From positions 3,584,001-3,648,000 of the forward strand of contig CM000151.3 in assembly GCA_000004695.1 (NCBI GenBank): a stretch of 64,000 nucleotides of DNA, written 5' to 3'. This document shows positions 3,928-62,423 of this stretch, one piece after another (the first letter of the stretch is position 1; each line of letters opens with the position of its first letter). Source of the DNA: Dictyostelium discoideum. Taxonomy: Eukaryota. The notes under the pieces are model-generated. The model saw nothing but the letters and a program-made list of their open reading frames with translations, was not told the DNA's origin and did not search any database. The position numbers and the translations under genes were made by a program.

Positions 3928-5045
3928 ATTTAAAGTTTTTTTTTTTTTTTTAAAGGTTTGTGAAATTATTATTATTATGTATGTTATAGTTTTGGTATTA
4001 TATTATTAATAATTTTTTTTTTTTTTTTTTAATGTACAATTTTAATTATATGAAAGGAAGAAAAAATAAAAAAAATAAAAAAAAAAACAAAAAAAAAAAA
4101 AAATGGAAAATTATAATTTAATTTTGAGGGTTTTGTTGTTATTATAAATAAAAAATTAAAAAAAAAAAAAAAAACTGAAACTAAACCGAGTTGTTGTTTA
4201 TTTTTGAGAGAAAAAAGTAAAAAAAAAAATTAAAAAAAAAAAAAAAAAAAAAAAGATATTTTTTAATAATATGGTGTTAGATTACTATTATAAAGAACCA
4301 ACAGTCACGCCTGTTTGCAAATATGTCATAATTTAATTTAATTTATTTTTTTTGAATTTTTTTCTTTTTTTTTTTTTTTAGAATTTTCAACCTTTAGAAA
4401 AAAAATCTTTTATTTTTTTTTTTAATTTTTTTTTTTTTTTTCTTTAGATTTCTTTTTCCTTTTTTCCAACTTATTTGACCACGAGCTCGTGGGTTCGAAA
4501 TGCCCATACTCGTTTAATTTGGATAATTTTCGGGTTTGTGTGTGAAAAAAACAATATACATATAATGAATAGTAATAATAATAATAATAATATTTACCTT
4601 TTTCCATTTTTTTTTTAAAAAAAAAAAACTTATTGAATTTAAATAAATAAAAATTTATACATACAAAGTTTAAAAAAAAAAAAAAAAAACAATTTTTTTT
4701 TTTTAATTATTCATAATTTTTTTTTATTAAAAAAAAAAATAAATAAAAAAAAAAAAAATTAAAAAAAATAAAATTTAAATTGATTCGCCACACAGGTAGT
4801 ATATTTTTAAAAGAAATATTTTTTAATTTAAAAATGAATAAAATGTGATTTCTTTTTTTTTGTTTTATTTTTTATTTTTTTTTTTGTTGTGCACTTAAAA
4901 AAAAAAAAAAATTAATTAAATTAATTTTTTAAAAAAAAAAATAAATAAAATAACATAAAATTTAGGTGTAACAAAAAAAATTTTGCTTTTTTGATTTTTT
5001 CAAATATTTCATTATTTATTTGAATATGAAATTTTAAATCTTAAG

Positions 5046-9800: not shown

Positions 9801-10046
9801 TAGTGGTGATAATATCGATTTTAAAATACCTTCATTCTTTGAAGATAATTCACGTAGACATTGGGGTGTAGAAACTGAATTATCAACTGGTTCTTGTCCA
9901 ATTTGTACCTTATCTTTAGCTGAAAATCCTGAATCTTCATTTTTAGGTTCAACACCCGCTACAATTATAGTATTCCCAAATTGTGGTCATTCATATCATC
10001 ATTGTTGTATTGAAGATCAAGGTTGTATGTTATGTTTTTCAAAGAG

Positions 10047-10050
<4 letters not shown>
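5328..10050 (+). CDS. Large protein with N-terminal WD40/beta-propeller-like region, Thr/Ser/Pro-rich mucin-like middle and C-terminal RING-H2 finger (Vps8/HOPS-CORVET-like architecture; assignment tentative). Two exons: 5328..6951 and 7064..10050.
   Basis: ORFs 5328..7022 and 7186..10050 are joined in frame by a 112-nt intron (donor caag|GTAATTTTT at 6952, acceptor aaaaaag| at 7063). The reading frame is open from 7064. The N-terminal region has WD-like strands (YLALGANTGSLYFFERKS; LIWSHCGGYLFSGDDLGNLYCC). The C-terminus is CPICTLSLAENPESSFLGSTPATIIVFPNCGHSYHHCCIEDQGCMLCFSKR* (C-x2-C...C-x-H-x2-H-x-C...C-x2-C). Poly-Q tracts present. Confidence 0.65.
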
Positions 10051-10102
<52 letters not shown>

Positions 10103-10232
10103 AATATTATTAATAATTATATAAATATATATATATTTCATTTTTTTTTTTTTTTTTTTTTTAAAAAAAATTAATTTATTTGTAAATAAACAAAAATAAA
10201 TAAAATAAAAATACAAAATTATTTATTATTTA

Positions 10233-12266
10233 TTACTTTTTTAAAAATGATAGTGCTTTTTTGATAAAATTATAATTATTACTTTTTGTTGGGGGTTGAA
10301 TGTCTACAGTTACCATCTGGCCATCTTTTTCTTCATCATAGCTTGATTTTAAATTTAATAAAAAATACTGCATACTTTGGCCCATTGCCATTTCGAAACT
10401 TGAAAATTTTGAGGAGATGGATTGTGGAATTGTTATATTATTATTATTATCATTATCATTAATATTATTAATATCTAGAATGTGAATTAAGTATAAAAGT
10501 GATTTTGAATAATCACAATAAATTGAACAAATAAATTTAGCTAATAAAGTTTTATCAATGATAAAACAAAGTTTTTTAATTTTTTTAATTGTTTTAAAAT
10601 TCTCTGATTTTAAATTACAAAATATTAAATCAGTTAGTGTTTTGCTATTACAAATTTCAATTAAAATTTCTTTTCTATTAAGAAAATTTTTTAAAAATCT
10701 TTGATTGATTTTATTTCTATTAATTTCATCAATTTTTGATTCAATTTCATATGATTTTAAAATGAATTTTCTTCTTCTTTCAGAGTTGAAAGGTAATTTG
10801 ATGCTTTGAATTTTTTCGTGTAGTGATAATGTTTCTTCAAAAGTTAACAATGGTAAAACTAAATTAAAAACAAAATCATAACCTTCACTTTCATTTGATG
10901 GTAATGAAAAATCAATTAAATCTAAATATCGATTTAAAACAATTTCAGAAAGGTTTGAAATTACATAAGATACCATGTTTTCATAATTTAATTCTATTAT
11001 AGTTAATAATTTTTCAAAGTTGAATCCAAATTTAACCAGATATAATTTGAATAAATTTAAATCTCTATTCATTATTTTACATTTATAAAAAAGTACTGAT
11101 AAAAACTCTGGTTTTAATAATAATTTATCATATTCTGAAAGATTGTTTGGATCATCATCATTTATACAATTTGAAGCGAATGAAATATTTTCAAACATTC
11201 TTTCATCACTGGCATAGAAGCCATTATTTAACATCTTGTCAATTGCATAATTTCTAAACTCTATTGAGGCTATTGTAAGTCTCTTTTTTTGTTCTTTTTT
11301 GAAATAGTTATTTGAAGAGTATACTCGTTCTATTAAAATTTTATAAAATGGTAATAATTTATCATTTCCTCTAAATGAATTAATACTAATTTTTAATTGC
11401 TCTAATATTTTAATTGAAATTTGAATATCCAATATTGTAACTATATCATCTGGATGGTGATCTGTTGGATTGGTTTGTTTTTTATCATATTTAAAAAGAG
11501 AAAGTAGCGATTTTAACATTTTTAAATCTTCATTTCTTATTGCATCTTCAATAAATCTTGTAAAGGAATTTAAACGTGAAAAATATTGATTTGACCTTTT
11601 TATTCTCTTTAGATATTCGTATTTTAAATCTTCATTTTTCCCATTTGAATAATACAATGAAAATATAGTATATAGATTATTTAAATCTTTTAAAGCATCA
11701 CTATTTAAATCTTTACAATTATCAATAAAATAATTTAATAATCTTATTGAATGAACCCCTCTATATACAAAGGCAACGATATTATCAAATTTAATTAATT
11801 TTCTAAATGTTTTTTTTTCTAAAAAGTGTATGAATTTATCATCACATATTTCAAAACCACTGGGGTTAATATATAATGTTATTTCATTCCGATTTTTAAT
11901 TTCATTTTCAAATATTCTTAAATAAAGATCAAATGATTCTAAATCCAATTCTTTCCATCCTAATAAAAGTAATATTTGCCCTTCATCAAATCTAATAAAA
12001 TATTTATGTACATTTGATTGATTTTCTTTGGTGAATCCATTCTCTTTTATTTCATTTTTAAGTTTTAAAAAATCTTTTAATTTTTCTACAAATAATTGTT
12101 GATTTTTTTTTTTTATTATTAATTCTAAAGGTAAATCATAATAATTATATCTGATATATTTTAATTTCTTATTATATTCTTTAACTTTATTAAATATTTC
12201 TCTATTAATATATTGATTTCTAAAAATTTTAAAAAATAAATCATCATTATTTGAAACCATTTTCAC
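10233..12266 (-). CDS. Hypothetical K/N/L-rich protein (677 aa ORF), no recognisable domain.
   Basis: Long uninterrupted minus-strand ORF in a >80% AT context (a random ORF of this length is very unlikely). Flanked by a poly-A/T terminator-like region (10050-10230) and an AT-rich upstream region (12267-12400). Confidence 0.5.
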   Translation of the reverse strand: MKMVSNNDDLFFKIFRNQYINREIFNKVKEYNKKLKYIRYNYYDLPLELIIKKKNQQLFVEKLKDFLKLKNEIKENGFTKENQSNVHKYFIRFDEGQILLLLGWKELDLESFDLYLRIFENEIKNRNEITLYINPSGFEICDDKFIHFLEKKTFRKLIKFDNIVAFVYRGVHSIRLLNYFIDNCKDLNSDALKDLNNLYTIFSLYYSNGKNEDLKYEYLKRIKRSNQYFSRLNSFTRFIEDAIRNEDLKMLKSLLSLFKYDKKQTNPTDHHPDDIVTILDIQISIKILEQLKISINSFRGNDKLLPFYKILIERVYSSNNYFKKEQKKRLTIASIEFRNYAIDKMLNNGFYASDERMFENISFASNCINDDDPNNLSEYDKLLLKPEFLSVLFYKCKIMNRDLNLFKLYLVKFGFNFEKLLTIIELNYENMVSYVISNLSEIVLNRYLDLIDFSLPSNESEGYDFVFNLVLPLLTFEETLSLHEKIQSIKLPFNSERRRKFILKSYEIESKIDEINRNKINQRFLKNFLNRKEILIEICNSKTLTDLIFCNLKSENFKTIKKIKKLCFIIDKTLLAKFICSIYCDYSKSLLYLIHILDINNINDNDNNNNITIPQSISSKFSSFEMAMGQSMQYFLLNLKSSYDEEKDGQMVTVDIQPPTKSNNYNFIKKALSFLKK

Positions 12267-13026: not shown

Positions 13027-17879
<4,853 letters not shown>

Positions 17880-22160: not shown

Positions 22161-24407
22161 TTATGATAGTTTTTTTAATTTTCTATTAAATGTTTTTACA
22201 AATTTATCGTCTTTCCACTTTTTTATAATAAAATAAGAAGCTGCAACAACAACGACAGCAGCAAAAGCAACGGAACCAATAATAATACCAGCGAGTTGAG
22301 AACTTGTTAGTTTTGATTTATTTGATGTACAAATTGAATTATTATCATTATTTGATACTGGTTTACTATCTACTAATACTGAAAAGTCTGGATCAATAAT
22401 TATTGATTGTTTATAATTTGGTATTGTAATACCAATGAATGATTGTGATATTGATGATGTTTGAATTGAGTTCATTTTTGAATCTAATAATTGATTTTCA
22501 ATTGAAGATACTTTTGAATCGATGATTGCTCTTTTAATGAATCTACCATAAAGTGAATGATCATCAATTTGAATTTTAAAGAAGTTTGAATTATCACCAT
22601 CGCTTGTATCTCCAAATACTTTTAATGAACAAGTATCTTTGGAAGTTGATGATTCGAATAATGCTGACATTACAAGTTGAAGACTATTTAATTGATTTAA
22701 AAATTTATATTCTGTAATTTCAATTGTATATTTAATACTTGATGGATTCATTGTTATATTATTATTTGCAAATTGAATGATTGTTGTTTGATTGAACCAT
22801 TCTAAAGTTACAGTAATATTGGTTGTTAATGTATTTGTTGATTTTGTATCACCACTTTGAATACTTGTAAAGTATTGACTTTTAATATTATTAATTGGTG
22901 TATAAATCCATTTATCAAATGTATATAAATTAACTTAATTTGAATTAAAATCTAATTCTCTTAATGATACAATTGAAATCAATGATTTGAATAAATAATT
23001 TGTACTATTTGATGTTTGATTATTGTTATCGATAATTGGTAATTCAGTTGATGGTTGTGATGTATTTGTTGATGGTTGTGGTATAATTATAACTTGTGAA
23101 TTACAATCATTACCAATCCAAGGTGGATAACAAACACATCCACTTGATGAACAATATCCTTGTTTTGATCCACCACATAATGGTTCACCTAAACATGTTT
23201 GAGGTTTATTCGTTGGTATTGGTGATGATGTAGGTGTTGACGATGACGAGTCTATTGAAGAAGATGATGATGATGGATTTGGTGTTGGGGATTCTGTTGG
23301 TAATTCTGTTGGAATTGGTGGTACAAAACGAATATCAAATACTAATGGATAAACAGTGAATTCATTTGAAAAGAAAGCTTCTTGTACTTTGATAATGAAT
23401 GGTTTATCAGTTGGTTTGACATCATTGATTAACATTGCATTTGGATAACTTATAGTTGGTATTGATGTTTGTGTAAATGTTGATTCACCATAATATTTAA
23501 TTAATACTACAAGATTTGAAGAAAAGAAACCAGCACCTATTATCCATAATTCGCCACCACTTGTTGTAATTTGAGAAACTCTATAGATATCTAACCTTTT
23601 AGCAAGTCCTGATGATACTGCTTTCATTGAAAACTTATACGGGAATAGAATTCTTAGTGAGTCGCTTGAATAACCACCATAACAACCACCATTATTAATT
23701 AATCCATAAACACTGAATGTAATTTCTGAAGTGTACAATACACCTCTTGGTAAGTAAACGTAACATTGATAGGTTGCAGAGGTGATATTCTTTGATTTAA
23801 TAATTGTTTCACATTCAAATATTTGAAATTCAATTGCTTCAACGTAAACCATTGGATATTGAAGATCTTTTAATCCACTTTCGTAATCAGTTGCTTCAAA
23901 TGAGAAATATACTTCCATATGTCCATCTGCAGGAATAGCTACTTGTGGTGTAAATAATGTTAAAATTGGTGGTGAACTATCGATACCATCATTTTCACCA
24001 CTACACTTTTTATATAATTTATTTATTGTTGAGTCTAATAAATAATTTATAAATGGGTTATTAACACCACCACCTACAAATGATTCAGATACTGAAAAGT
24101 AGCAACCAATACCTTGAGTATCATATAATTTAACTTGTGTGATAATATAATTTTGAGATGCACATTTACTTGGTAAAGTTATATTAATTTGATAATCACC
24201 ATTAAATTTATCACCTCTTGTTAAATTTTGAGTTGTTAAATGGAATTTATAAGTTGAACTATCCATTTCACCTCTAACTATAATATCAGCATAATCAAAA
24301 CCATTAATTGGATCATCTATTGTAAATTTCCAACCAAATTCATTTGTTGAATTAACCTTTTCAATATTACTAAATATTGGTCCATATCCATCGAAATCTG
24401 TAGATTC

Positions 24408-29045: not shown

Positions 29046-32000
29046 TCAGTTCATTTTTTGTAATTTGTTTTGTACTTTTCTTTGGAACAAAACCGATTTT
29101 TTGTTTTTCACAACCAAGTAAACAACTGATACAATAACTACAGTGGCAAAAGCAACGGAACCAATAATAATACCAGCGAGTTGAGCACTTGTTAGTTTTG
29201 ATTTATTTGATGTACAAATTGAATTATTATCATTATTTGATACTGGTTTACTATCTACTAATACTGAAAAGTCTGGATCAATAATTATTGATTGTTTATA
29301 GTTTGGTATTGTAATACCAATGAATGATTGTGATACTGATGATGTTTGAACTGAGTTCATTTTTGAATCTAATAATTGATTTTCAATTGAAGATACTTTT
29401 GAATCGATGATTGCTCTTTTAATGAATCTACCATAAAGTGAATGGTCATCAATTTGAATTTTAAAGAAGTTTGAATTATCACCATCGCTTGTATCTCCAA
29501 ATTCTTTTAATGAACAAGTATCTTTGGAAGTTGATGATTCGAATAATGCTGACATTACAAGTTGAAGACTATTTAATTGATTTAAAAATTTATATTCTGT
29601 AATTTCAATTGTATATTTAATACTTGATGGATTCATTGTTATATTATTATTTGCGAATTGAATGATTTTTGTTTGATTGAACCATTCTAAAGTTACAGTA
29701 ATATTAGTTATTAATGGATTTGTTGATTTTGTATCACCACTTTGGATACTTGTAAAGTATTGACTTTTAATATTATTAATTGGTGTATAAATCCATTTAT
29801 CAAATGTATATAAATTAACTTGATTCGAATTAAAATCTAATTCTCTTAATGATACAATTGAAATCAATGATTTGAATAAATAATTTGTACTATTTGATGT
29901 TTGATTATTGTTATCGATAATTGGTAATTCAGTTGATGGCTGTGATGTATTTGTTGATGGTTGTGGTATAATTATAACTTGTGAATTACAATCATTACCA
30001 ATCCAAGGTGGATAACAAATACATCCACTTGGCGAACAAAAACCTTGTTTTGATCCACCACATACTGGTTCACCTAAACATGTTTGTGGTTTATTCGTTG
30101 GTATTGGTGATGATGTAGGTATTGGTGTTTGTGTTGGTGTTGGATCTATAAAATTATAAACTATTGGATTGACAGTGAATTCATTTGATGTGAGTGGTAG
30201 GTCTGAAACTTTGATAATGAATGGTTTATCAGTTGGTTTAATATTTTTAATAAACATTGCACTCCAATAAACTGTAGTTGGTACTATTATTTGATTAAAG
30301 CTTGAGTCTCCTTCATATTTTACATATACTTGTTGCGTTGAATTGAAACATCTACCTGTTATCCATAACTCGCTATCAAATGAATTAAATTTACTGCATT
30401 TTGTGATTTGTATTACTTTATTAAAAGCTATATTATTAATTGTATATATAAAAGATAAATTATTTAGTGATTCGCTTGAATATCCGCTATAATAACCGCC
30501 ATTATTAATGAATCCATAAACACTGAAAATAATATCTGAATTGTATCCAAATCCTATTGGTAAATTGATGGTACATGTATAGGTTGCAGCTGTTTCGTTT
30601 ATTGAAATAATAGATGATACACATTCAAGTGTTTGTGCTTCTATTGTTTGAATGTAAACAATTGGATATTGTTTATCTTTTAAACCACTTTCAATATCTA
30701 CTGCTTCAAAGTTGAATAATAAATATTGAGTACCATCACTATTTTGTCTTAATATTGGTATGAATGAAGTTAAAATTGGTGGTGAACTATCGATACCATC
30801 ATTTTCACCACTACATGTTTTATATACTTTATTTATTGTTGGATCTGATAAATAATTTATAAATACATTTTTAATACCATCTATTCCATTAACTACTGAA
30901 AATTCACCTGAATAACCTTGAGTATCATATAATTTAACTTGTGTGATAATATAATTTTGAGATGCGCATTTACTTGGTAAAGTTATATTAATTTGATAAT
31001 CACCATTAAATTTATCACCTCTTGTTAAATTTTGAGTTGTTAAATGGAATTTATAAGTTGAACTATCCATTTCACCTCTCACTATAATATCACCATAATC
31101 AAAACCATTAATTGGATCATCTATTGTAAATTTCCAACCAAATTCATTTGTTGAATTAACCTTTTCAATATTACTAAATATTGGTCCATATTCATCGAAA
31201 TGTTTAGAAACAACTATTAGTTGTGATGATAAAGGAAACATATCATTTGTTATTGCTCGAAAACCACACCATAAAAAGAAACTGAGTGGACCAGGTCTAG
31301 TGTTTGCAAGAACTGTAAATTTAATTTGATATTTTGAAATTGTTGAATTCCAAGTTGCAAACTTTAAACTATTGAAATCTATATTAGAATCTGTGGTATT
31401 ACTATTTAAAATAAAAAGTGAGAATGAAGCTGAAGGATTACTATGGGTTTGAGTACCATTATAATTGAAATAAATTATATTATCAACTGATTTATTTGCC
31501 ACATCAATATAATTTTTTAAAAATGTAATATTTTCTATTAAAACAGGTAATATTGTTGGAGCTTTATAATCTATAACTGAAAATGGATTAATTGAAAAAT
31601 AACTATTTAAATAATAAACTTGACTCTTTTTAAAAGTTGAATCTCCAATAGATAAAAATTGAAAACCACGCCCTTTAAAATCATAAACAATTTCATATAT
31701 ATTATTTTCAGCATCTACCAATGATTCTTGTCTATATATTCCATTTGCATCATCATCATTAATTTGAATGAAAAGATTATAACCAATCTCTTTATATGTT
31801 GGTTTTATTTTAATTCTTAATAAATGAAATTGTTCAAAAAGGTATATAACTTTACATGATTCTAATTCTAATGGTAGTAATGATGAATTTATTGCTATAT
31901 TTAAAAATATTTTTTAATGTTAGTAATTGTTTTGAGTGTGTGTGTGTTGTTCGGTAGTAGTTTAGAATATTAATGATTTTATATGTGTATATACTTACTA

Positions 32001-32717
32001 TTGTCTATTTGAATATTTAAATTTCGATTATTAAAGGTCAATAAACCAAAATTGTTTGGCGAATATGTGGGTTTTAAAAATGATGCTTTTAAAGAATAGT
32101 TTGAATTTTGACCACTTTCAAACCCAAATGGCCAACTAAAGATATATTGAAAACCTAAATTCCATCTAAAATAAAATGAAAATGTTTCATACTGGGTATT
32201 TGAATTGAATCCAAATGAAAACATTGTTGAGTTTAATGTTAAAGGTACTGATATTGGTTCAACAATGACATTTGGAAATGTAAAATTAAAATTATCTATT
32301 CATTTTTTTAAAAAAAAAAATTAAAATAATGTCAATAGAAATTAATCTTTGATATATGTATATATTAAAAAGTAATTAAATTTAATTTTAACAAACTTAC
32401 TAAAAACATTTAAATTTGGATCACTATAAATTGTTGTTAATGAGTTATTAATTTTTGCGAAAATAGAATATTGTGTATGAACTTGGCCAATGAATGTTGT
32501 ACCTTTTCCTGGTATTTCATATGATGGAGTTGGAATATTATTTGTAATATCTTCAATAAATAATGGATCATATTCAATGGTTTCATTTAATGTAATAGAG
32601 TAAACTGGTGAACAATTAATTCCAAATTCTTTAACATCAGTTTGGTTTGGGTAGATCTTAAATGTAATATCCTTTTCTTCTACATTCATTTCTTAAAATA
32701 ATAATAATTTTAATATC

Positions 32718-32748
<31 letters not shown>

Positions 32749-33105
32749 ATTATTATACTTACTTGAAAAATATAAAAAAGGAATTGTAATATTTACAGTA
32801 TATTGTTGATCTGAACTATCCAAGAATCTTATTGATATATTAAACTCTGATATTAAATTATTTTTATCAAATCCTACACCAACAAAGAATAAATTTGAAT
32901 ATCCCTCTAAGCTCATTGCAACATTTGAAGGACTTGAAACATTTAGCAAATTTAGTGGATATTTTAAACCTGCAAAGTGTATTGTTGCTGTATAAGGAAA
33001 AAGTGTAAATTTATAATTGTTACTTGTTAAAACATTGACCTTCATCAATTCTCGAGGGATATCTATAAAATTGATATTAAAGTTAATTATTTTTTTTTTT
33101 TTTTT

Positions 33106-33150
<45 letters not shown>

Positions 33151-33571
33151 GTTTTATATACAAACATTCACAAGAATAAGTTATTGAGATATTTTTATAA
33201 ATAATTTGATCATTTTGCAATGTTGCATTTATTAATAATGTATAAGTATTTGGTGTTTTATTTTTAACTATAACTGTGGCAATTCCTCCATATTCTTTCT
33301 TATTGATTAGAGAGACTGTTGCATCTGTGTCATTGGTGAAAACCATCAAATTTGTTCCACTATTCGAGTAATCAACTATTGCAATCGAAAAAACATATGA
33401 ACAAATTTTTTGATTTGTTGAATCTGGGTATCTATTATAAGCACCTTCTTCTTGATTTGTAATATCATACAATTGAAACTGTCCTTCAACCCCAATTATT
33501 AAATTATTTATTGTTGAAAAGCTATTTATTATCGCCAATGTTAGGATTATCAATAAAATTTTCTTTATCAT
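29046..33571 (-). CDS. tgr-like type-I transmembrane receptor, copy C (apparently intact). Exons 33571..~33160, ~33048..32746, ~32689..32342, ~32224..31979, ~31908..29046.
   Basis: Signal peptide MIKKILLIILTLAIINSFS. Exon ORFs 32746..33048, 32342..32689 and 31979..32224 contain WPFGFESGQNSNYSLK. The 891-aa last-exon ORF 29046..31721 extends upstream to an acceptor at ~31908. It carries EGF-like CLGEPVCGGSKQGFCSPSGCICYPPWIGNDC, TM AGIIIGSVAFATVVIVSVVYLVV and tail KNKKSVLFQRKVQNKLQKMN*. There is no intron at the position where A and B have the microsatellite intron. Confidence 0.8.
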
Positions 33572-33737
33572 TTTTTTTTTTTGTTTATTTAAACTTGCAA
33601 TAAGTTTTTTTTTTTTTATTAAAACAACAAAAAAAAAAAAAAAAAACTTGCCCTTTAGCAAACATTTTTTTTTATTTTTGCTTTTTTTTTTTTTTTTACG
33701 ATTTGCTGAGCTAATAAAAGATATTTAAAAAAAGATA

Positions 33738-33770
<33 letters not shown>

Positions 33771-34472
33771 AAATAAAAAACAAAAAAAAAATTTTGAAAT
33801 TCTAAGGGGCAAACAGAAAAAAAAAAAAAAAAAAAGACACAAAATTTCTTTTCGCTTTTATTACCAAACAAATTGGTGTCGTTTTGTTAAAAAAAAAAAA
33901 AAAAAAACAAAATATTGATGATTGTTTTTTATATATATTTTATAAGGCGGTTGTAAAAATTTTTGCATTAAAGTGTTCCTCTTTTTTTTTATTTTTTTTT
34001 TTTACTTTTATTTTTTTTATTTTCTGTGTAACTCCCCTTATTATTTTATCTTTTATTATTATTGTTATTTTTAAAAAAACAACATTCATCTAAATGATTG
34101 GTTCATTTTACTTGTTTTTTATTTTTTTTTTGGTTTTTTTTTTTCTTTTTACCAAATAATTGGTTTTTTGGTGTTGTTGATGAAATCAATTGCTTTTTCT
34201 TTCTACTAATCTTGATCCATTTTTTTGTTCTATCTCAAGCTAATTGATTATATAATTAATGGTGATTTTGTCTTTTTTTTTTTTTTTTAAAGATTAATTT
34301 AAAAAATAATAAAAAAAAAAAAATTAAAATTTTTTTTATATATACTTTTTTTTTCGAATTAAAAGTCCTGTTTTTATTTGTTTTTATCTTTTATTTTTTA
34401 TTTTTTATTTTTATTTTTTTTCCAAGATTTATAATTTAAATATTAGAATTAAATTAACTGATTAAGTAATTA

Positions 34473-37400
34473 TCAGTTAATTGTTTGTAATTTCTTTTGT
34501 ACTTTTCTTTGGAATTTTTTTGATTTTCTGTTTTTCACAACCAAGTAAACAACTGATACAATAACTACAGTGGCAAAAGCAATAGAACCAATAATAATAC
34601 CAGCGAGTTGAGCACTTGTTAGTTTTGATTTATTTGATGTACAAATTGAATTATTATCATTATTTGATACTGGTTTACTATCTACTAATACTGAAAAGTC
34701 TGGATCAATAATTATTGATTGTTTATAGTTTGGTATTGTAATACCAATGAATGATTGTGATACTGATGATGTTTGAATTGAGTTCATTTTTGAATCTAAT
34801 AATTGATTTTCAATTGAAGACACTTTTGAATCGATGATTGCTCTTTTAATGAATCTACCATAAAGTGAATGATCATCAATTTGAATTTTAAAGAAGTTTG
34901 AATTATCACCATCGCTTGTATCTCCAAATACTTTTAATGAACAAGTATCTTTGGAAGTTGATGATTCGAATAATGCTGACATTACAAGTTGAAGACTATT
35001 TAATTGTTTTAAAAATTTATATTCTGTAATTTCAATTGTATATTTAATACTTGATGGATTCATTGTTATATTATTATTTGCGAATTGAATAATTGTCGTT
35101 TGATTGAACCATTCTAAAGTTACAGTAATATTGGTTGTTAATGTATTTGTTGATTTTGTATCACCACTTTGAATACTTGTAAAGTATTGACTTTTAATAT
35201 TATTAATTGGTGTATAAATCCATTTATCAAATGTATATAAATTAACTTGATTTGAATTAAAATCTAATTCTCTTAATGATACAATTGAAATCAATGATTT
35301 GAATAAATAATTTGTACTATTTGATGTTTGATTATTGTTATCGATAATTGGTAATTCAGTTGATGGTTGTGATGTATTTGTTGATGGTTGTGGTATAATT
35401 ATAACTTGTGAATTACAATCATTACCAATCCAAGGTGGATAACAAATACATCCACTTGATGAACAAAAACCTTGTTTTGATCCACCACATACTGGTTCAC
35501 CTAAACATGTTTGTGGTTTATTCGTTGGCATTGGTGATGATGTAGGTATTGGTGTTTGTGTTGGTGTTGGATCTATAAAATTATAAACTATTGGATTGAC
35601 AGTGAATTCATTTGATGTGAGTGGTAGGTCTGAAACTTTGATAATGAATGGTTTATCGGTTGGTTTAATATTTTTAATAAAAATTGCACTCCAATAAACT
35701 GTAGTTGGTACTATTTGATTAAAGCTTGAGTCTCCTTCATATTTTACATATACTTGTTGCGTTGAATTGAAACATCTACCTGTTATCCATAACTCGCTAT
35801 CAAATGAATTAAATTTACTGCATTTTGTGATTTGTATTACTTTATTAAAAGTTATATTATTAATTGTATATATAAAAGATAAATTATTTAGTGATTCGCT
35901 TGAATATCCGCTATAATAACCGCCATTATTAATGAATCCATAAACACTGAAAATAATATCTGAATTGTATCCAAATCCTATTGGTAAATCGATAGTACAT
36001 GTATAGGTTGCAGCTGTTTCGTTTATTGAAATAATAGATGATACACATTCAAGTGTTTGTACTTCTATTGTTTCAATATAAACAACTGGATATTGTTTAT
36101 CTTTTAAACCACTTTCAATATCTACTGCTTCAAAGTTGAATGATAAGTATTGAGTACCATCACTATTTTGTTTTAATATTGGTATGAATGAAGTTAAAAT
36201 TGGTGGTGAACTATCGATACCATCATTTTCACCACTACATGTTTTATATACTTTATTTATTGTTGGATCTGATAAATAATTTATAAATACATTTTTAATA
36301 CCATCCATTTCACCAACTACATAAAATTCACCTGAAAAGCCTTGAGTATCATATAATTTAACTTGTGTGATAATATAATTTTGAGATGCACATTTACTTG
36401 GTAAAGTTATATTAATTTGATAATCACCATTAAATTTATCACCTCTTGTTAAATTTTGAGTTGTTAAATGGAATTTATAAGTTGAACTATCCATTTCACC
36501 TCTCACTATAATATCACCATAATCAAAACCATTAATTGGATCATCTATTGTAAATTTCCAACCAAATTCATTTGGTGAATTAATTTTTTCAATATTACTA
36601 AATATTGGTCCATACGCATCGAAATGTTTAGAAACAATAAATAGTTGTGATGATAAAGGAAACATATCATTTGTTATTGAAGATTGATAACCACACATTA
36701 AAAAGAAACTGAGTGGACCAGGTCTAGTGTTTGCAAGAACTGTAAATTTAATTTGATATTTTGAAATTGTTGAATTCCAAGTTGCAAACTTTAAACTATC
36801 GAAAACTATATTAGATTCTGTGGTATTACTATTTAAAATAAAAAGTGAGAATGAAGCTGAAGGATCACTATGGGCTTGAGTACCATTATAATTGAAATAA
36901 ATTATATTATCAACTGATTTATTTGCCACATCAATATAATTTTTTAAAAATGTAATATTTTCTATTAAAACAGGTAATATTGTTGGAGCTTTATAATCTA
37001 TAACTGAAAATGGATTAATTGAAAAATAACTATTTACATAATAAACTTGACTCTTTTTAAAAGTTGAATCTCCAATAGATAAAACTGAAAATCCACGCCC
37101 TTTAAAATCATAAACAATTTCATATATATTATTTTCAGCATCTACCAATGATTCTTGTCTATATATTGCATTTGCATCATCATTAATTTGAATGAAAAGA
37201 TTATAACCAATCTCTTTATATGTTGGTTTTATTTTAATTATTAATAAATGAAATTGTTCAAAAAGGTATATAACTTTACATGATTCTAATTCTAATGGTA
37301 GTAATGATGAATTTATCGCTATTTTTAAAAATATTTTTTAATGTTAGTACTTGTTTGTGTGTGGGGTGTGTGTGTGTGTTATTCAGTAGTAGTTTAGAAT

Positions 37401-38976
37401 ATTAATGATTATATATGTATATTAGAATATTAATGATTATATGTATATATACTTACTATTGTCTATTTGAATAATAAAATTTTCATTATTAAAGGTCAAT
37501 AAACCAAAATTGTTTGGCGAATACGTGGGTTTTAAAAATGATACTTTTAAAGAATAGTTTGAATTTTGACCACTTTCAAACCCAAATGGCCAACTAAAGA
37601 TATATTGAAAACCTAAATTCCATCTAAAATAAAATGGAAAAATTGCATACTGAAAACTTGAAGTGAACCCAAATGAAAACATTGTTGAGTTTAATATTAA
37701 AGGTAATGATACTGGTTCAACAATGACATTTGGAAATGTAAAATTAAAGTTTTCTATTCATTTTTTTTTAAATAATGTCAATAGAAATTAATCTTTGATA
37801 TATGTATATATTAAAAAGTAATTGAATTTAATTTTAAAAAACTTACTTGAAACATTTAAATTTGGGTTACTATAAATTGTTGTTAATGAGTTATTAATTT
37901 GTGCGAAAATAGAATATTGTGTATAAACATAACCAATGAATGTTGTACCTTTTCCTGGTATTTCATATGATGGAGTAGGCATACGACGTGAAACATCTTC
38001 AATAAATAATGGATCATATTCAATGGTTTCATTTAATGTAATAGAGTAAACTGGTGAACAATTAACTCCAAGTACTGTAACATCGGTTTGGTTTGGATAG
38101 ATCTTGAATGTAATATCCTTTTCTTCTACATTCATTTCTTATAATAATAATAATTTTAATATCTTATTTTTTTTTTTTTAAATTTAATTATTATACTTAC
38201 TTGAAAAATAAAAAAAAGGAATTGTAATATTCACAGTATATTGTTGATCTGAACTATCCAAGAAAAGTATTGATATATTAGACTCTGGTACAAAATTATA
38301 TTTATTAAAATCTACACTAACATATAATAAATTTGAATAAAAATTATTTATGTTTATCCAAGAAGGACTTGAAACATTTAGATAAGATATTTGATATTTT
38401 AAACCTGTAAAGTGTATTAATGTTGTATAAGGATTAATTGTAAATTTATAATTGTTACTTGTTAAAACATTGACCTTCATCAATTCTCGAGGGATATCTA
38501 TATAAAATTGGTATTGAAATTAATTAATTATTTATTTTTGTTTTTTTAATTTTAAATTTTATATACAAACATTCACAAGAATAAGTTATTGAGATATTCT
38601 TATAAATATTTTGACCATTTTGCAATGTTGCATTTATTAATAATGTATAAGTATTTGGTGTTTTATTTTTAACTATAACTGTGGCAATTCCTCCATATTC
38701 TTTCCTAATGATTTGATAGACCATTGCATCTGTATCATTGGTGAAAACATTCAAAGTTGCCCCACTATTCGAGTAATCAACTATTGCAATCGAAAAAACA
38801 TATGAACAAATTTTTTGATTTGTTGAATCTGGGTATCTATTATAAGCACCTTCTTCTTGATTTGTAATATCATACAATTGAAACTGTCCTTCAACCCCAA
38901 TTATTAAATTATTTATTGTTGAAAAGCTATTTATTATCACCAATGTTAGGATTATTAATAAAATTTTCTTTATCAT
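34473..38976 (-). CDS. tgr-like type-I transmembrane receptor, copy D (apparently intact, near-identical tandem duplicate of C). Exons 38976..~38530, 38483..38184, 38135..37788, 37682..37437, ~37322..34473.
   Basis: Same exon architecture and >95% nucleotide identity to copy C over most of the 5.4-kb unit. Signal peptide MIKKILLIILTLVIINSFS. 891-aa last-exon ORF 34473..37148. Tail KNRKSKKFQRKVQKKLQTIN*. Confidence 0.8.
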
Positions 38977-39205
38977 TTTTTTTTTTTAAAAAAAAAAATA
39001 AAAAAAAAAAAAAAAAAAACGTTCCCCATTTTTTTTTTTACGATTTGATAAAGATATTTATAAAAAGATATTTATAAAAAGATATTTTAAAAAAAAAATT
39101 AAAAAAAATATTTTTTGAATTTCAAGACTACCTCACAACAAAATTTCATTGTTTTTATTTTTTATTTCTTTTTTTTGATCCCAACAAACACATTATAAAT
39201 GGTAC

Positions 39206-39253
<48 letters not shown>

Positions 39254-39392
39254 TGTTTAATTTATTTAATTTCTAATACTAACATAAAATTTGTTTGGTA
39301 GAGTTGGATCTGGAATAAAATCATTTATGTTTTATTTGTTGAAGATTTTGTTTATTTAGTCCAAAATACCTTGTTTAGTTGTTATAAATCCA

Positions 39393-39623
39393 TTAGCTTG
39401 AAGACTTGGCATAATATGACTTGTGTTTGGATTTTGTTGTATTAGTTGTGAATTCATCAGATTGAAGACTTGGCATAATATGATTTGTGTTTGGATTTTG
39501 TTGTTGTATTAGTTGTTGTTGTGCTTGTATTAGTTTTTGTTGTGTTCCTAATGTTGCTAGTAGTTGTTTGCATTGACATTGTTCTTTTTTAGGTTGATTA
39601 CAACCTCTACAAATGTATACCAT
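39393..39623 (-). CDS. Small Cys/Gln-rich ORF (76 aa) containing an internal ~56-bp tandem duplication. Doubtful gene.
   Basis: MVYICRGCNQPKKEQCQCKQLLATLGTQQKLIQAQQQLIQQQNPN.... The + strand 39401-39450 and 39457-39512 are near-identical direct repeats (tgaagacttggcataatatgactt/gatttgtgtttggattttgttg...). Confidence 0.15.
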   Translation of the reverse strand: MVYICRGCNQPKKEQCQCKQLLATLGTQQKLIQAQQQLIQQQNPNTNHIMPSLQSDEFTTNTTKSKHKSYYAKSSS

Positions 39624-39774
39624 TTTTTGTTTAGTAATAATTTAGCCAAATAAAAAAATAAAAAAATATAATAAAAAAAATCAAAAAAAAAAATTTTGGT
39701 TATTGAATTTTCTATTGTGCCTTTTTTTAATAATTAATTTTGAAAAATTTTAGTAAAATATATTTTTTAAAAAA

Positions 39775-39808
<34 letters not shown>

Positions 39809-40289
39809 AAACAAAGAAAAAAAATAAAAAAATTTAAAAAAAAAAATAATATAATATAAAAAAATATAAAGCAGTTATTCATTTTTAATTAAATTACCAA
39901 ATAAAGAGTTTTAATTTAAAGGATTAAACAAAAATCAATCAATAGGTTTATTTAAATGTAAAGTAGTTATATTTATATTATCAAATAAAGAATTTTAATT
40001 TTAAAGTAATAAACAATAAACAATAAACAATAAAAAATAATAAATATGTTTATTTATTTTAATTTTAAAATGCACAATAAATTTCTTTATTTAATTTAAA
40101 TTATGGAACAATGAATTTTAATTTATAAAAAAAAAAAAAAAAAAAAAAAATCACCAATACACAGAGAATAATAAAATAAAATTATTTGTTGATATTATAA
40201 TAAAAATGATAAAAAATATTAAATTAATTTTAAATATTAATATCTTTTTTTTCATTATTATTTTCCTTTGTTATATAAAGGAATTTCCT

Positions 40290-40625
40290 TTATAAGTGAT
40301 TCGCTTGAATATCCGCTATAATAACCGCCATAGTCAATATTGGTCCATATTCATTGAAATGTTTAGAAACAATTAATAGTTGTGATGATAAAGGAAACAT
40401 ATCATTTGTTATTGAAGATTGATAAGTACTAATTAAAAAGAAACTGAGTGGATCAGGTCTAGTATTTGTAAGAACTGTAAATTTAATTTGATTTTTTGAA
40501 ACTATTGAAATATATATTAGATCATATCTGTATTACTACTATTTAAAATAAAAAGTGAGAATGTAGCTGAAGATCACTGTGGCCTGAGTATCATTATAAT
40601 TGAAATAAATTATATTATCAACTCC
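40290..40625 (-). pseudogene. Degenerate, internally deleted fragment of the tgr-like large exon.
   Basis: 40296-40330 (gtgattcgcttgaatatccgctataataaccgcc) matches D 35888-35925. 40335-40620 matches D ~36590-36915 (caatattggtccata..gaaatgtttagaaacaat..agttgtgatgataaaggaaacatatcatttgttattgaagattgataa..) with substitutions and small indels. No open frame. Confidence 0.7.
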
Positions 40626-40879
40626 TATTAAGATTTAAAAATAAAAAATTTAATATTTAAAAAAAAAAAAAAATATTTTCAAATAATTTTTTTTTTTTTT
40701 TTTTTTAAATCCATAATTTTAAAAATATTTTGACACATACACCATATCGATGAATCATTACATCAAAATACCTTAGTAAGTTTTTTTTATTTTTTTATTT
40801 TTTCAATTTGTTTAAATAATTAATTTTTATTAATTATATATATATACTCAAAATGATAAATTTTATTTAATTTTTAAAA

Positions 40880-42440
40880 ATATTTCATCACCAAATAGAC
40901 AAGAAAGATATGAAGCAGTTAAATGTGTTAGAGAAATTTTATCTGATGGTAAGTTTTTTATTTTTATTTTTTTTTTTTTTTAATTGACTTTTTTTTTTTT
41001 AAATTGACTTTTTTTTTTTAAATGACTTTTTTTTTTTTTTTTTTATTATTTATTATAAAAAAAAGATAATAATCCACAAATTGATAGAGTTATTAGTTCA
41101 GGGTTAGTACTAATTTTACATAGATATTTAGTTGATGAAACAGATACTTCAATTCAATACGAAGCATCATGGGCATTAACAAATGTTGCATCAGGATCTT
41201 CAAAACATACAAATTATATTGTAGGGAATGAAATTCATAATTCTGTATTAAGTAAGGCAATTGCAGAGTTGAGGCACCACAGATAGCCTTAGCAATAGCG
41301 CAGGTGGCTTCAAGTTTTGTTCTTAAATTGATCGATGAGTTTTTACCGGTTTCAATAGCTCTTTTAAGCAAACATTCGTCTATGACTCTTTGGACTTGAT
41401 CTGTTGGACCATTGGTAATATATAATAAAAAATAATAACCTCACGTCACCAATGCTTCTGATGGTGATGATAAGATTTTAGGAAACACTTTCAATACATT
41501 ACATTGTAACAAATACTCTATAACGTCATAGAAACCTGAAAGCATATTACCAATTGTATTGAATCCGTATTTAATACAATCTTTTTGATCTGATTCGAAA
41601 ATGATTTCAATGATAACCTCAACCAATCCCATAGATATAATATTGTCAAAGATCTCATGCTCTTCATTGGTTGATTCGGTCAAGCATGATAATGCCCACA
41701 ATGCTTCTGATATGACATCAGCTTCTTTATGCCAAGTTAAGAGCAACTCTTTATTGATGGTAATAGTGGCTTAACGAGTCTAAATTCAGTACGTGGTACA
41801 CCACGACATAGATTTTTAATGACCCAAGCTACATTTGAAACTAGTGATTTCTTTGAATGAGTTTTCAATATTTCTATCAAATGTAATACTATACCTTAAT
41901 TGAGTACACTATCTCTATTTTGGAATGAATCACCAGTGATATTACCTAATGTCCAAATGTTTTGTTCTAAAAGATCAACATCATTACTAGTTGACATTAA
42001 ATCAATTATACTCTCAACTCTGCAATTGCCTTACTTAATACAGAACGATTGTCTTGAATGTTTGAAACAGAATTATTCAGCATCTAAAGCTCGAAAAAAT
42101 TCTTTTTATTACTATTTGGAGGGCATTGCCAAAATATTAAATATTGTCAAAAAACATACCAAAGAAACAAACTGTTTAAAACTTTTCAACACTTTTATCG
42201 ATGGTCAATTCTTTGATAATTTACTCGATGATTCCAATTCTTGTGAACGAGAATTTGTTGAAGGTTACTCAACAATCAGCGATGAATTTGATGAGTTGAC
42301 TCAAGTGGTTCAACAAATTGAACCTAAAAATTCAAAGGGTGAAGATGTAAATGAAGTTAATTGTGAAAAATCTGCTGAAAAAGCTTCTGATTATGAAGAT
42401 GATATTGCTAAATTATATGAAATGAAACTTAATGAATAAA
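40880..42440 (+). pseudogene. Importin-alpha (karyopherin-alpha)-like gene, rearranged. The 5' part is on + (exon ~40880..40930, intron, exon ~41065..41270). The central ARM repeats are inverted onto the minus strand (~42015 down to ~41280), then + orientation resumes (42050..42439). The inversion is bounded by a ~35-bp inverted repeat.
   Basis: + strand reads ..SPNRQERYEAVKCVREILSDG|GTAAGT and ..NNPQIDRVISSGLVLILHRYLVDETDTSIQYEASWALTNVASGSSKHTNYIVGNEIHNSV (canonical ARM motif xQxEAAWALTNIASG). Minus strand 42015->41280 reads ..VDLLEQNIWTLGNITGDSFQNRDSVLN..IVLHLIEILKTHSKKSLVSNVAWVIKNLCRG...ISEALWALSCLTESTNEE...NTIGNMLSGF.. with stops and frame breaks. The inverted repeat 41236-41271 (aattctgtattaagtaaggcaattgcagagttgag) is the reverse complement of 42017-42049. 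ORF 41093..41371(-) is simply antisense to the + fragment. Confidence 0.6.
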
Positions 42441-42925
42441 AACAAAATAAAATAAAATAAAATAAAATAAATAAATTTCAATTGGAAGATTTTTTATTTC
42501 CAGTCTGTTAAACATGTTGAACTGTTAAAACTATTAAACCTGATAAACCTACCAAACGATCCTGTGCCAAAGATTGGAGAGAATATAAATCTATCTATAC
42601 ACTATGACATTAGGAATGGTTTAATATTTATTAACACTTCAACAACAATAAAAATAAAAAAATTTAAACATCATCATTTTTAAATATTGGAAAAATTTTA
42701 ATAATTTCAAATAAATAATAAATGTGTGGGTAAACCTAATTAATTTGTTTTTAATTTTTTTTTTGTTGAACCACTACAGTAGAAATTTTTTTTTTTACAT
42801 ATACATAAGAAAAGACAAATAAATAATAAGTAAATGCATAAAGAAATTTTTAAAAATTAATAAAAAAAATAATAATTTTTATTTTCCAAGATTTTTAATT
42901 AGAATATTTGAATTAAATTAACTGA

Positions 42926-45900
42926 TCAGTTCATTTTTTGTAATTTGTTTTGTACTTTTCTTTGGAATAAATCTGATTTTCTGTTTTTCACGACCAAGTA
43001 AACAACTGATACAATAACTACAGTGGCAAAAGCAACGGAACCAATAATAATACCAGCGAGTTGAGCACTTGTTAGTTTTGATTTATTTGATGTACAAATT
43101 GAATTATTATCATTATTTGATACTGGTTTACTATCTACTAATACTGAAAAGTCTGGATCAATAATTATTGATTGTTTATAATTTGGTATTGTAATACCAA
43201 TGAATGATTGTGATACTGATGATGTTTGAATTGAGTTCATTTTTGAATCTAATAATTGATTTTCAATTGAAGATACTTTTGAATCGATGATTGCTCTTTT
43301 AATGAATCTACCATAAAGTGAATGGTCATCAATTTGAATTTTAAAGAAGTTTGAATTATCACCATCACTTGTATCTCCAAATTCTTTTAATGAACAAGTA
43401 TCTTTGGAATTTGATGATTCGAATAATGCTGACATTACAAGTTGAAGACTATTTAATTGATTTAAAAATTTATATTCTGTAATTTCAATTGTATATTTAA
43501 TACTTGATGGATTCATTGTTATATTATTATTTGCAAATTGAATGATTGTCGTTTGATTGAACCATTCTAAAGTTACAGTAATATTAGTTGTTAATGTATT
43601 TGTTGATTTTGTATCACCACTTTGAATACTTGTAAAGTATTGACTTTTAATATTATTAATTGGTGTATAAATCCATTTATCAAATGTATATAAATTAACT
43701 TGATTTGAATTAAAATCTAATTCTCTTAATGATACAATTGAAATCAATGATTTGAATAAATAATTTGTACTATTTGATGTTTGATTATTGTTTTCTATAA
43801 TTGGTAATTCAGTTGATGGTTGTGATGTATTTGTTGATGGTTGTGGTATAATTATAACTTGTGAATTACAATCATTACCAATCCAAGGTGGATAACAAAT
43901 ACATCCACTTGATGAACAAAAACCTTGTTTTGATCCACCACATACTGGTTCACCTAAACATGTTTGTGGTTTATTCGTTGGTATTGGTGATGATGTAGGT
44001 ATTGGTGTTTGTGTTGGTGTCTCTGTTGGTGTTTCTGTTGGTGTTTCTGTTGGTGTTTCTGTTGGTGTTAAGGGAATCGTAAAATTATAAACTATAGGAA
44101 TAACAGTGAATTCATTTGATGTGAGTGGATAGTCCGAAACTTTGATAATGAATGGTTTATCAGTTGGTTTAATATTTTTAATAAACATTGCACTCCAATA
44201 AACTTTATTTGGTACTATTATTTGATTAAATCCAGGTTCTCCAAAATATTTTACATATACTTGTTGTTTTGTTGAATTGAAACCTCTACCTGTTATCCAT
44301 AACTCGCTATCACCAGATACAAATTTGCTACAGGTATTAATTTGTATTACTTTGTTTATGGATATATCGCTCATTGAATATATAAAAGATAAACTATTTA
44401 GTGATTCGCTTGAATATCCGCTATAATAACCGCCATTATTAATGAATCCATAAACACTGAAAATAATATCTGAATTGTATCCGAATCCATTTGGTAAATT
44501 GATAGTGCATTTATAGGTTGAAGTTGTTTCATTTATTGAAATAATAGATGATACACATTCAAGTGTTCTTAAATCTGTTGTTTGGATATAAACAATTGGA
44601 TATTGTTTATCTTTTAAACCACTTTCAATATCTACTGCTTCAAAGTTGAATGATAAGTATTGAGTACCATCACTATTTTGTTTTAATATTGGTATGAATG
44701 AAGTTAAAATTGGTGGTGAACTATCGATACCATCATTTTCACCACTACATGTTTTATATACTTTATTTATTGTTGGATCTGATAAATAATTTATAAATAC
44801 ATTTCTAATACCATTAAATCCACTGGATACTGAAAATTCACCTAAATAACCTTGAGTATCATATAATTTAACTTGTGTGATAATATAATTTTGAGATGCA
44901 CATTTACTTGGTAAAGTTATATTAATTTGATAATCACCATTAAATTTATCACCTCTTGTTAAATTTTGAGTTGTTAAATGGAATTTATAAGTTGAACTAT
45001 CCATTTCACCTCTAACTATAATATCAGCATAATCAAAACCATTAATTGGATCATCTATTGTAAATTTCCAACCAAATTCATTTGTTGAATTAACTTTTTC
45101 AATATTACTAAATATTGGTCCATATTCATCGAAATGTTTAGATTCAATAATTAATTGAGAAGATAAAGGTAAGAAATCACTTATTAATGAACTTGAATAA
45201 CCACAAAGTAAAGCAAAACCAAGTGGACCAGGTCTAGTATTTGCAGGAACTGTAAATTTAATTTGATATTTTGAAATTGTTGAATTCCAAATTGAAGTTG
45301 TAATATTATCATAATCTACGACTCCAGTTACTTTAAACTCATGAGATAAAATTAAAAATGAGAAATTAATTGTATCATCTTTAGGTTCTTGAGTACCATT
45401 ATAATTGAAATAAATTATATTATCAACTGATTTATTTGTTACATCAATGTTATTTATTAAATAAGTTACATTACCAATTAAAACTGAAATCATATCAGAA
45501 TATTTAAAATCAAGTTTTAAAAGTGGATCAATTGAATAATATTGAAATGGATTATAAAATTGAGATTGTCTTGAATAAGAATCACCAATATTTAAACTAT
45601 TTAATATACCTTCATGAAAATTTAAAACAGTTTCATATATATTGTTTTCGATATCAGGCATTGAGTCATATCTTAATACTTGATTAACATTATCATTAAT
45701 TTTAATAAAAGTACTGTACCCTTTACTTTGATAAATTGGTTTTATTTTAATCTTAAATAAATAAACTTGATTATATAAATGAGTAGAATTAAATGATTCT
45801 AATTCTAATATTGGTAATGTATTTATATCCACAACTATTATTTATAATAAAATTATTTTAATTAATATAATAATTTTATTAAATAATAATAAAAAATAAA

Positions 45901-57807: not shown

Positions 57808-59317
<1,510 letters not shown>

Positions 59318-60878: not shown

Positions 60879-62423
<1,545 letters not shown>

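Follow-up and report, generated by a model that had tools for sequence, protein, structure and literature searches.

Segments of DNA bracketed by perfect inverted repeats are familiar from inversions that arise by non-allelic homologous recombination (NAHR) between pre-existing repeats, such as human polymorphic inversions (PMC3961182). The staggered-break model relates repeat and inversion differently (Ranz et al., 2007, PLoS Biol 5:e152; PMC1885836): the ancestor had a single copy of a breakpoint sequence, and now each end of the inverted segment carries one, the two being inverted relative to each other. The model includes a variant that is staggered at one region with a single break at the other, and the Drosophila cases described are chromosomal inversions of kilobases to megabases with breakpoint duplications of 46 bp to 1.9 kb (PMC1885836). 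Here we analyzed a decayed, importin-alpha-like gene copy with an internal inversion, located at about 40700–42497 of a 64,000-nt stretch of chromosome 2 of Dictyostelium discoideum AX4 (GCA_000004695.1, contig CM000151.3, positions 3,584,001 to 3,648,000; hereafter the window). The region is extremely A+T-rich. The copy is about 1.8 kb long, gene-sized and with both introns kept, and it is almost certainly a real pseudogene in which the inversion gave rise to the inverted repeat.

The two arms of the inverted repeat, 41241–41273 and 42013–42045, are 33 nt each, 100% complementary and separated by 739 nt. The 33-mer occurs at only these two sites in the window, even if three mismatches are allowed, and no match was obtained in 100 shuffles. 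An earlier note on this DNA had placed a 35-bp repeat at 41236–41271 and 42017–42049; the location was right, but the exact values are 2–5 nt off and the true length is 33. Six-frame translation revealed a change of strand at the arms. On the plus strand, up to 41240, the reading is ..RQERYEAVKCVREILSDG, a GTAAGT intron (40949–41065) and DNNPQIDRVISSG..QYEASWALTNVASGS..NYIVGNEIH. The minus strand of 41274–42012 reads ..SIIDLMSTSNDVDLLEQNIWTLGNITGDS.., ..AWVIKNLCRG.. and ..ISEALWALSCLTES.., with two stops and one frameshift. The plus-strand reading picks up at 42013 and covers the C-terminal repeats and then an acidic tail, before the stop codon (42437–42439) ends it. The note had described the same arrangement, with the GTAAGT intron and first ARM repeats on the plus strand and the next repeats on the minus strand with stops and frameshifts, in a segment flanked by inverted repeats; both descriptions were borne out.

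Conceptual translation of the un-inverted copy led to intact, collinear proteins of 512–527 aa with 56–69% identity in D. discoideum, D. cf. discoideum, D. citrinum and D. firmibasis. The AX4 member of this cluster is DDB_G0277993 (Q54YZ3), which lies on another chromosome than the window; it occupies 3001–4772 of the retrieved AX4 locus, and its function appears unstudied. In five genomes the parent locus has a common neighbourhood (a kinase gene, ETF-beta, the ARM gene and then a gene of about 3000–3300 aa) that is unrelated to the window, and therefore the window copy is a dispersed paralogue. Blastn of the window against the intact parent gave exactly three segments. Parent 10005–10511 corresponds to window 40744–41240 on the plus strand (82%), parent 10511–11289 to window 42014→41237, inverted (78%), and parent 11263–11613 to window 42023–42371, again on the plus strand (80%). 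Since these segments overlap on the parent, some 30 parental nucleotides occur in the copy in both orientations.

To establish the ancestral order, five explicit reconstructions were compared. Those in which the interval was flipped with both arms kept, or in which the left arm was taken as native, produced frameshifts or an 11-codon insert absent from all homologues. Only the reconstruction with the right arm native restores the frame and fits the homologues. Written as w[..41240] + RC(41241..42013) + w[42046..], where w is the window and RC the reverse complement, it restores GAAATTCATAAGAGTATAATTGAT (CAT AAG AGT ATA), identical to all five orthologues; the frame is kept across each junction, and no base is missing or added. 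At the left breakpoint the sequence of the five intact orthologues is continuous, CATAAG|AGTATAATT; they contain the arm sequence once, in the right-hand position only, as the in-frame coding sequence ..GAS(S/T)xQL(L/P)YLIQN... On the plus strand the right arm of the copy, ..KLEATCAIAKAICGA|STLQLPYLIQN|DCLECLKQ.., fits ..REITWAIINAITGASSQQLLYLIQNDCLDCL.. of the homologues. The left arm in plus orientation encodes SVLSKAIAELR, which no homologue has. We also considered the arm as an intron (GTAAGG..TTGCAG) and rejected this possibility, because the implied introns of 15–48 nt are implausible and the arm is coding in the homologues. The inverted tract measures 773 nt, ancestrally G-AGTATAATT...ACAGAA and now 41241–42013, and an extra direct copy of its last 32–33 nt remains at the right-hand end. 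The left junction (CATAA|TTCTGT) shows 0 nt of homology, the right junction (ATACT(C)TCAAC) 1 nt, a C at position 42013.

Independent information on the left breakpoint comes from other de novo assemblies, from which we extracted the orthologous stretch that separates the first two receptor genes; remnants were sought by tblastn and by a fuzzy 33-mer search, and the matches of a very sensitive blastn of the ACTFIR spacer were discarded as A/T-rich noise. In D. cf. discoideum ACTFIY we found a remnant of the same pseudogene of about 230 bp, which runs from the last part of exon 2 through an intron 2 of reduced length into ARM1-2. It has five derived substitutions in common with the AX4 copy, at sites invariant among the parents. 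The remnant is collinear through the left breakpoint, GAAATTCATAAGAGTATAATTGATTTAAT = GAAATTCATAAG|AGTATAATTGATTTAATATCAGC, before it is ended by a deletion, and no repeat arm is present at that breakpoint. As the left arm is missing both from the orthologues and from the ACTFIY remnant, the repeat was made by the rearrangement and was not its cause. Recombination between pre-existing repeats is contradicted by the same two observations, namely the single-copy arm in the orthologues and the left breakpoint of ACTFIY. The locus resembles NAHR inversions (PMC3961182) in that a segment is bracketed by perfect inverted repeats; the difference is that here the repeat was absent before the event and is only 33 nt long. 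The earlier note had called the inversion inverted-repeat-mediated, and this part of it has to be given up: the left arm is ancestral neither in the five orthologues nor in the ACTFIY remnant. It follows as a caution that a perfect inverted repeat around an inversion can be a scar and need not mean that recombination mediated it. The locus is an unusually clean natural micro-inversion, the ancestral state of which can be reconstructed to the base.

The note had also left room for a mis-assembly, in which case the true genome would be collinear and the inversion an error of the AX4 reference. The reference was assembled long ago from Sanger reads, the genome is extremely A+T-rich, and the region lies in a chromosome-2 block that is represented twice; this block is duplicated in AX4 (PMC12745789), which the two gene identifiers found here, DDB_G0272594 and DDB_G0273973, fit. 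However, the same sequence is present in GCA_054883475.1 (locus tag ACTFIT), one of a set of de novo Nanopore+Illumina assemblies (PMC12745789), made 20 years later. It is 99.85% identical to AX4 over 24.5 kb. Against window 19037–43585 the ACTFIT contig shows eight single-nucleotide differences and seven homopolymer-type gaps, all of which lie outside the element; window 40300–42700 is matched at 100% identity. Because ACTFIT differs from AX4 elsewhere, it is not a copy of the reference. Moreover, the 33-nt repeat is far below the length of any read type used, so that reads span both junctions. The inverted structure is real, and an assembly artefact, the least credible of the explanations weighed here, is close to refuted.

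The copy is an unprocessed, DNA-level duplicate pseudogene of DDB_G0277993 that has decayed neutrally. In a nucleotide alignment with three parent loci, homology extends from about 50 nt 5' of the ATG to about 58 nt past the stop codon, and both introns sit at the parental positions. Since the introns and both flanks are kept, the copy was made at the DNA level and is not a retrocopy. The presence of both introns and the lack of poly(A) after the 3' limit of homology at about 42497 speak against a processed (retro)pseudogene, although no search aimed at target-site duplications was made. Retroposition of an unspliced transcript may still be considered, given that the limits of the copy are near those of a transcription unit, but neither a poly(A) tail nor any further evidence speaks for it. 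The disabling lesions are the deletion of the ATG (about 35 nt), the change of the intron-1 acceptor from TAG to CAA, a TAA, a TGA and a 1-nt deletion. Copy-specific substitutions at codon positions 1/2/3 number 60/41/31, to be compared with 75/44/171 for the sites variable among the parents. The spread of substitutions evenly over codon positions means that the copy evolved without coding constraint. The earlier suggestion of a pseudogenised importin-alpha-like paralogue with an internal inversion is thus upheld by the lesions, by the lost constraint and by the parent alignment. Like other unprocessed duplicated pseudogenes, the copy keeps its introns and short flanks and shows multiple lesions and even codon-position substitutions; it differs in being gene-sized and dispersed to another chromosome, rather than part of a tandem or large segmental duplication.

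The age of the copy was estimated from a neighbour-joining tree built on 1717 ungapped columns. The copy branches after D. citrinum and before the crown group of AX4, ACTFIR and cf. discoideum in 497 of 500 bootstraps, long-branch attraction being a caveat to this placement. Of the 57 positions with a state derived in the crown group, the copy agrees with this derived state at 40 and shows the ancestral one at 11. Independently of the tree, remnants are present in three crown lineages, and the insertion therefore predates the divergence of these lineages. By these sequence comparisons the copy is old and would have arisen after the split of D. citrinum and before the radiation of the D. discoideum complex. 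We suggest that the ancestor of the D. discoideum complex acquired, between two ComC-like receptor genes, an inserted copy of about 1.8 kb that included both introns and flanks of about 50 nt (5') and about 58 nt (3'), and that neutral decay followed.

The inversion appears to be younger than the copy. The arm differs from the crown-group parents at 7–8 of its 33 positions, and three of these differences are common to no parent orthologue. In spite of this divergence the two arms are identical to each other, which argues for a late inversion. A Poisson argument, in which gene conversion between the arms is ignored, places the inversion in the later part of the history of the copy; the 95% lower bound is approximately the last 20–45%, the value within this range being set by the number of shared differences that arose on the branch of the copy. 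The inversion would then have happened late, in the lineage leading to the laboratory strains, as the same structure is found in AX4 and in the second assembly.

The staggered-break model provides the closest described parallel. As in the inversions of Ranz et al. (2007), a breakpoint sequence that was unique in the ancestor is now present twice, inverted, at the segment ends, no repetitive element is involved and the junctions are essentially without homology; one-sided duplication, as seen here, is also described there. The differences are that the present case is a 773-nt intragenic inversion with a duplication of 32–33 nt in a pseudogene of a haploid amoeba, and that its mechanism is deduced from the product. 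The reading that we prefer, to which we assign a probability of about 0.6, is that the duplicate pseudogene of DDB_G0277993 was inverted through a staggered break on one side and a blunt break on the other with end joining, the repeat being the scar. According to this reading, a clean double-strand break would have occurred at the left, at CATAA|GAGTAT, and a pair of single-strand nicks about 32 nt apart at the right; fill-in of the overhangs and flipping of the fragment would have been followed by non-homologous end joining. End joining fits because the junction homology is only 0 and 1 nt. As to the enzymology, a staggered break with end joining is the most likely choice against replication template switching.

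Several points weigh against this reading. The 32-nt stagger is shorter than the Drosophila duplications catalogued, the minimum of which is 46 bp (PMC1885836). No un-inverted full-length copy was found, and the reconstruction of the right breakpoint relies on the parent orthologues only. The strain of GCA_054883475.1 is probably AX2-214, an assignment based only on the 99.85% identity to AX4, and as this second assembly represents the same laboratory lineage it has no bearing on polymorphism in wild D. discoideum. Gene conversion could also keep the arms identical, which would weaken the late date. Finally, a double template switch would yield the same order A + RC(X) + last 32 nt of X + E, where X is the flipped tract, and the two routes cannot be told apart by the sequence alone.

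Such a pair of replication template switches, of the fork stalling and template switching or microhomology-mediated break-induced replication type (FoSTeS/MMBIR-like), is the most serious alternative, which we regard as possible though clearly less probable; it has the same ancestry and the same outcome. The nascent strand would leave its template after ..CATAA, copy the opposite strand back from ..ACAGAA to the G, return to a point 32 nt upstream of the start of the inverted tract and so recopy these 32 nt. This predicts the exact order observed, A + RC(X) + terminal 32 nt of X + E, without base loss, and a single event would be enough. The microhomology of 0 and 1 nt at the switch points argues mildly against it, as microhomology-mediated switching usually shows 2 nt or more. 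Nor does the alignment contain extra templated insertions or clustered mutations nearby.

The same final sequence could also be reached in two steps, by insertion of a 32-nt inverted copy of the downstream coding sequence at CATAA|G and a later homologous recombination between the arms that flips the 739 nt between them. Of the routes weighed here, this one comes closest to the idea of the earlier note. Perfect 33-nt arms, once present, could in principle recombine, but 33 nt of homology is very short for efficient recombination. The route needs two rare events where one suffices, the breakpoint is free of any insert in ACTFIY, which has the only orthologous remnant that is un-inverted, and both assemblies show a single orientation. 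We therefore consider it improbable, and well behind template switching.

A role for the element, either as a programmed invertible switch or as an antisense locus regulating DDB_G0277993 through double-stranded RNA or small RNAs, is very unlikely. In its favour, the proximal upstream region of the parent was copied with the gene, a plus-strand open reading frame (ORF) is annotated, and three stretches of the inverted tract, of 23, 25 and 28 nt, are still identical to the coding sequence of the parent. On the other hand, no second orientation is seen in the two assemblies of one strain lineage, and no recombinase gene turned up in the ORF lists of the window, although no search aimed at recombinases was made. 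The element is also largely deleted in ACTFIR, ACTFIW and ACTFIY and absent from ACTFIZ, it has evolved neutrally, and a literature search on the three gene identifiers (DDB_G0277993, DDB_G0272594 and DDB_G0273973) found no paper that mentions them. It is equally doubtful that a plus-strand transcription unit survived the inversion and would give an RNA with about 740 nt antisense to DDB_G0277993; if this were true, a micro-inversion would have created a natural antisense or small interfering RNA regulator of the parent in NC4-derived strains. The element is real, yet it is ordinary genome decay and in all probability not a functional element, and it is an instance of known phenomena. It has no bearing on a long-standing open question; its value lies in the annotation and in a worked example.

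Regarding annotation, the 160-aa ORF DDB_G0272594 / DDB_G0273973 (Q556L3; plus strand, 41957–42439) is a chimeric frame across the right junction. Its first 19 residues are the antisense of ARM3 and the remainder is the C-terminus of the pseudogene. Among the exact ORFs of the region that were looked up in the protein collection, only this ATG-start ORF is on record (AX4), residue for residue identical. It has no Pfam match, and a homology search with it found only itself. The ACTFIT assembly carries instead a 158-aa model on the minus strand at 1589–2145 of the contig (= window 41997–41441), with a faint Arm match. These two models on opposite strands of one pseudogene look like annotation artefacts. 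DDB_G0272594/DDB_G0273973 and the opposite-strand 158-aa model are fragments of one inverted pseudogene and are not to be counted as genes.

The relationship of the parent to importin-alpha, a family in which tandem armadillo (ARM) repeats make up the solenoid that binds the nuclear localization signal (NLS), was examined at the domain level. The Pfam Arm profile gives 68.5 bits with the reconstructed product of the pseudogene and 89.7 bits with the parent. The parent ARM domain aligns with importin-alpha structures over about 400 residues (E = 1e-74; rice importin alpha-1a, PDB 2yns/4b8j), and by eye the parent keeps the NLS-binding W-x-x-x-N helix-3 motifs of ARM2-4 and 7-8. By contrast, the N-terminal importin-beta-binding (IBB) domain (PF01749) had no match in the parent or the pseudogene, and no Arm_3 repeat (PF16186; the atypical C-terminal repeat of the exportin CAS-binding region) was detected in either, whereas the canonical importin-alpha used as a control has both. 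Parent residues 21–415 align to 81–466 of the full-length 4b8j, which means that the first ~60–80 residues are missing; the orthologues begin with MDIDDS.. and have only about 30 residues before ARM1. To judge from its predicted domains, the name importin-alpha-like is fair for the parent, but in the functional sense it does not belong to the importin-alpha family, for want of the IBB domain. The earlier note had proposed canonical importin-alpha for comparison, which is the wrong gene, since the parent is DDB_G0277993, without an IBB domain. Our homology search detected the parent clade in no species outside the D. discoideum / citrinum / firmibasis group.

The individual parts of the copy follow the parent from end to end. 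The 5' flank copied with the gene (40700–40743, plus strand) reads TTTTTAAA..AAAATATTTT(G/C)ACACA in the MAFFT alignment with the three parent loci; it matches the ~45–60 nt that immediately precede the parent ATG, and A/T runs blur its exact 5' limit. The alignment to the parents identifies a remnant of exon 1 (..IDESLHQNTL) at 40744–40775 on the plus strand, and it is the ~35-nt deletion just 5' of it that took the ATG. Intron 1 (40776–40851, plus) has kept its donor GTAAGT, and its acceptor is destroyed: the parent has TAG|GATGATAAA, the copy CAA|AATGATAAA. Exon 2 (..DKFYLIFKNISSPNRQERYEAVKCVREILSD; 40852–40948, plus) was delimited by translation and alignment to the parents. Intron 2 (40949–41065, plus), in the parental position, is enlarged by a local AATTGAC(T)n triplication. 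Here AATTGAC and a T run are present in triplicate at 40981–41035 with a period of 18–20 nt, and no parent intron has the triplication.

Exon 3 is split into three by the inversion. Part A (41066–41240, plus) comprises ARM repeats 1-2 (..QYEASWALTNVASGS..NYIVGNEIH) and ends at the left breakpoint CATAA|. It is followed by the left arm (41241–41273), which is the end of the inverted segment with the sense sequence ..AKAICGA|STLQLPYLIQN on the minus strand, and by the body of the inverted segment (41274–42012, minus), with ARM repeats 3-8. The lesions of the body are TAA at 41896–41898, the 1-nt deletion near 41756/41757 and TGA at 41441–41443. The right arm (42013–42045, plus) is the duplicate of the same 32–33 nt in native orientation and is in frame with the downstream sequence, STLQLPYLIQN|DCLECLKQ. 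Part C (42046–42439, plus) includes ARM 9-10 and the acidic tail, has in-frame deletions of 72 and about 27 nt relative to the parent, and terminates with TAA at 42437–42439. The 3' flank copied with the gene (42440–42497, plus; about 58 nt) is homologous to the 3' untranslated region (3'-UTR) of the parent (..AAATAAAT..TTCAATTGGAA..).

Remnants of the copy were revealed in further lineages. ACTFIW has kept 31 of 33 nt of the C-terminal ASDYEDDIAKL codons, in the expected place and orientation. Immediately before this 33-nt remnant, at about 14909–14930 of the ACTFIW contig, there is a run of about 19 A that may be deletion-junction filler. ACTFIR has kept a piece derived from the 3'-UTR, TTCAATTGGGA..TTTCCAG. 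Searches of ACTFIZ, the second D. cf. discoideum assembly, and of D. citrinum gave no remnant of the pseudogene. Nor did two metagenome scans, one with the present left junction and one with the pseudogene-specific junction of the un-inverted state, give any match. The spacer itself differs in size, AX4 having about 3.6 kb (39122–42691) where ACTFIW has about 0.8 kb. The array spacers clearly turn over quickly: AX4/AX2, ACTFIR, ACTFIW and ACTFIY each retain a different piece of the dead gene, which points to rapid deletional turnover in the spacers of the ComC-like array. The note had spoken of a receptor array and of a rearrangement-prone accessory region, and both statements hold, as the neighbours are paralogous ComC-like membrane proteins with EGF domains (Pfam ComC_SSD, DUF7034/7035) and the structure of the array varies between strains.

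It should be added that ACTFIR and ACTFIW, which are labelled D. discoideum, are only about 90–93% identical to AX4 over window 28000–58000, including the housekeeping neighbours RPL15, CSN8 and SRP14. This divergence is deep for nominal conspecifics and is consistent with remarks on diverged tropical isolates (PMC12745789).

Other rearrangements were noticed in and near the spacer. A decayed ComC-like receptor fragment at 40295–40623, about 70 nt upstream of the pseudogene, is 82% identical to 36601–36915, has an internal deletion of about 0.7 kb and includes a 37-nt piece 100% identical to three paralogues; it is probably the remnant of a lost member of the array. A sequence of about 220 bp at 39564–39781 is inverted with respect to ACTFIW spacer 15361–15572 (82% identity), representing a second small inversion or an inverted duplication. 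The receptor array comprises 15792–17879 (plus), 22935–24266 (minus), 29046–31721 (minus), 34473–37148 (minus) and 42926–45832 (minus), with truncated copies and one member on the opposite strand. The full receptor copies 29046–33775 and 34392–39122 are tandem duplicates, about 94% identical, with a period of about 5.4 kb. Further downstream, two nearly identical tandem ORFs of about 400 aa, 57808–59034 (minus) and 60879–62084 (minus), apparently go back to a recent duplication that is unrelated to the pseudogene.

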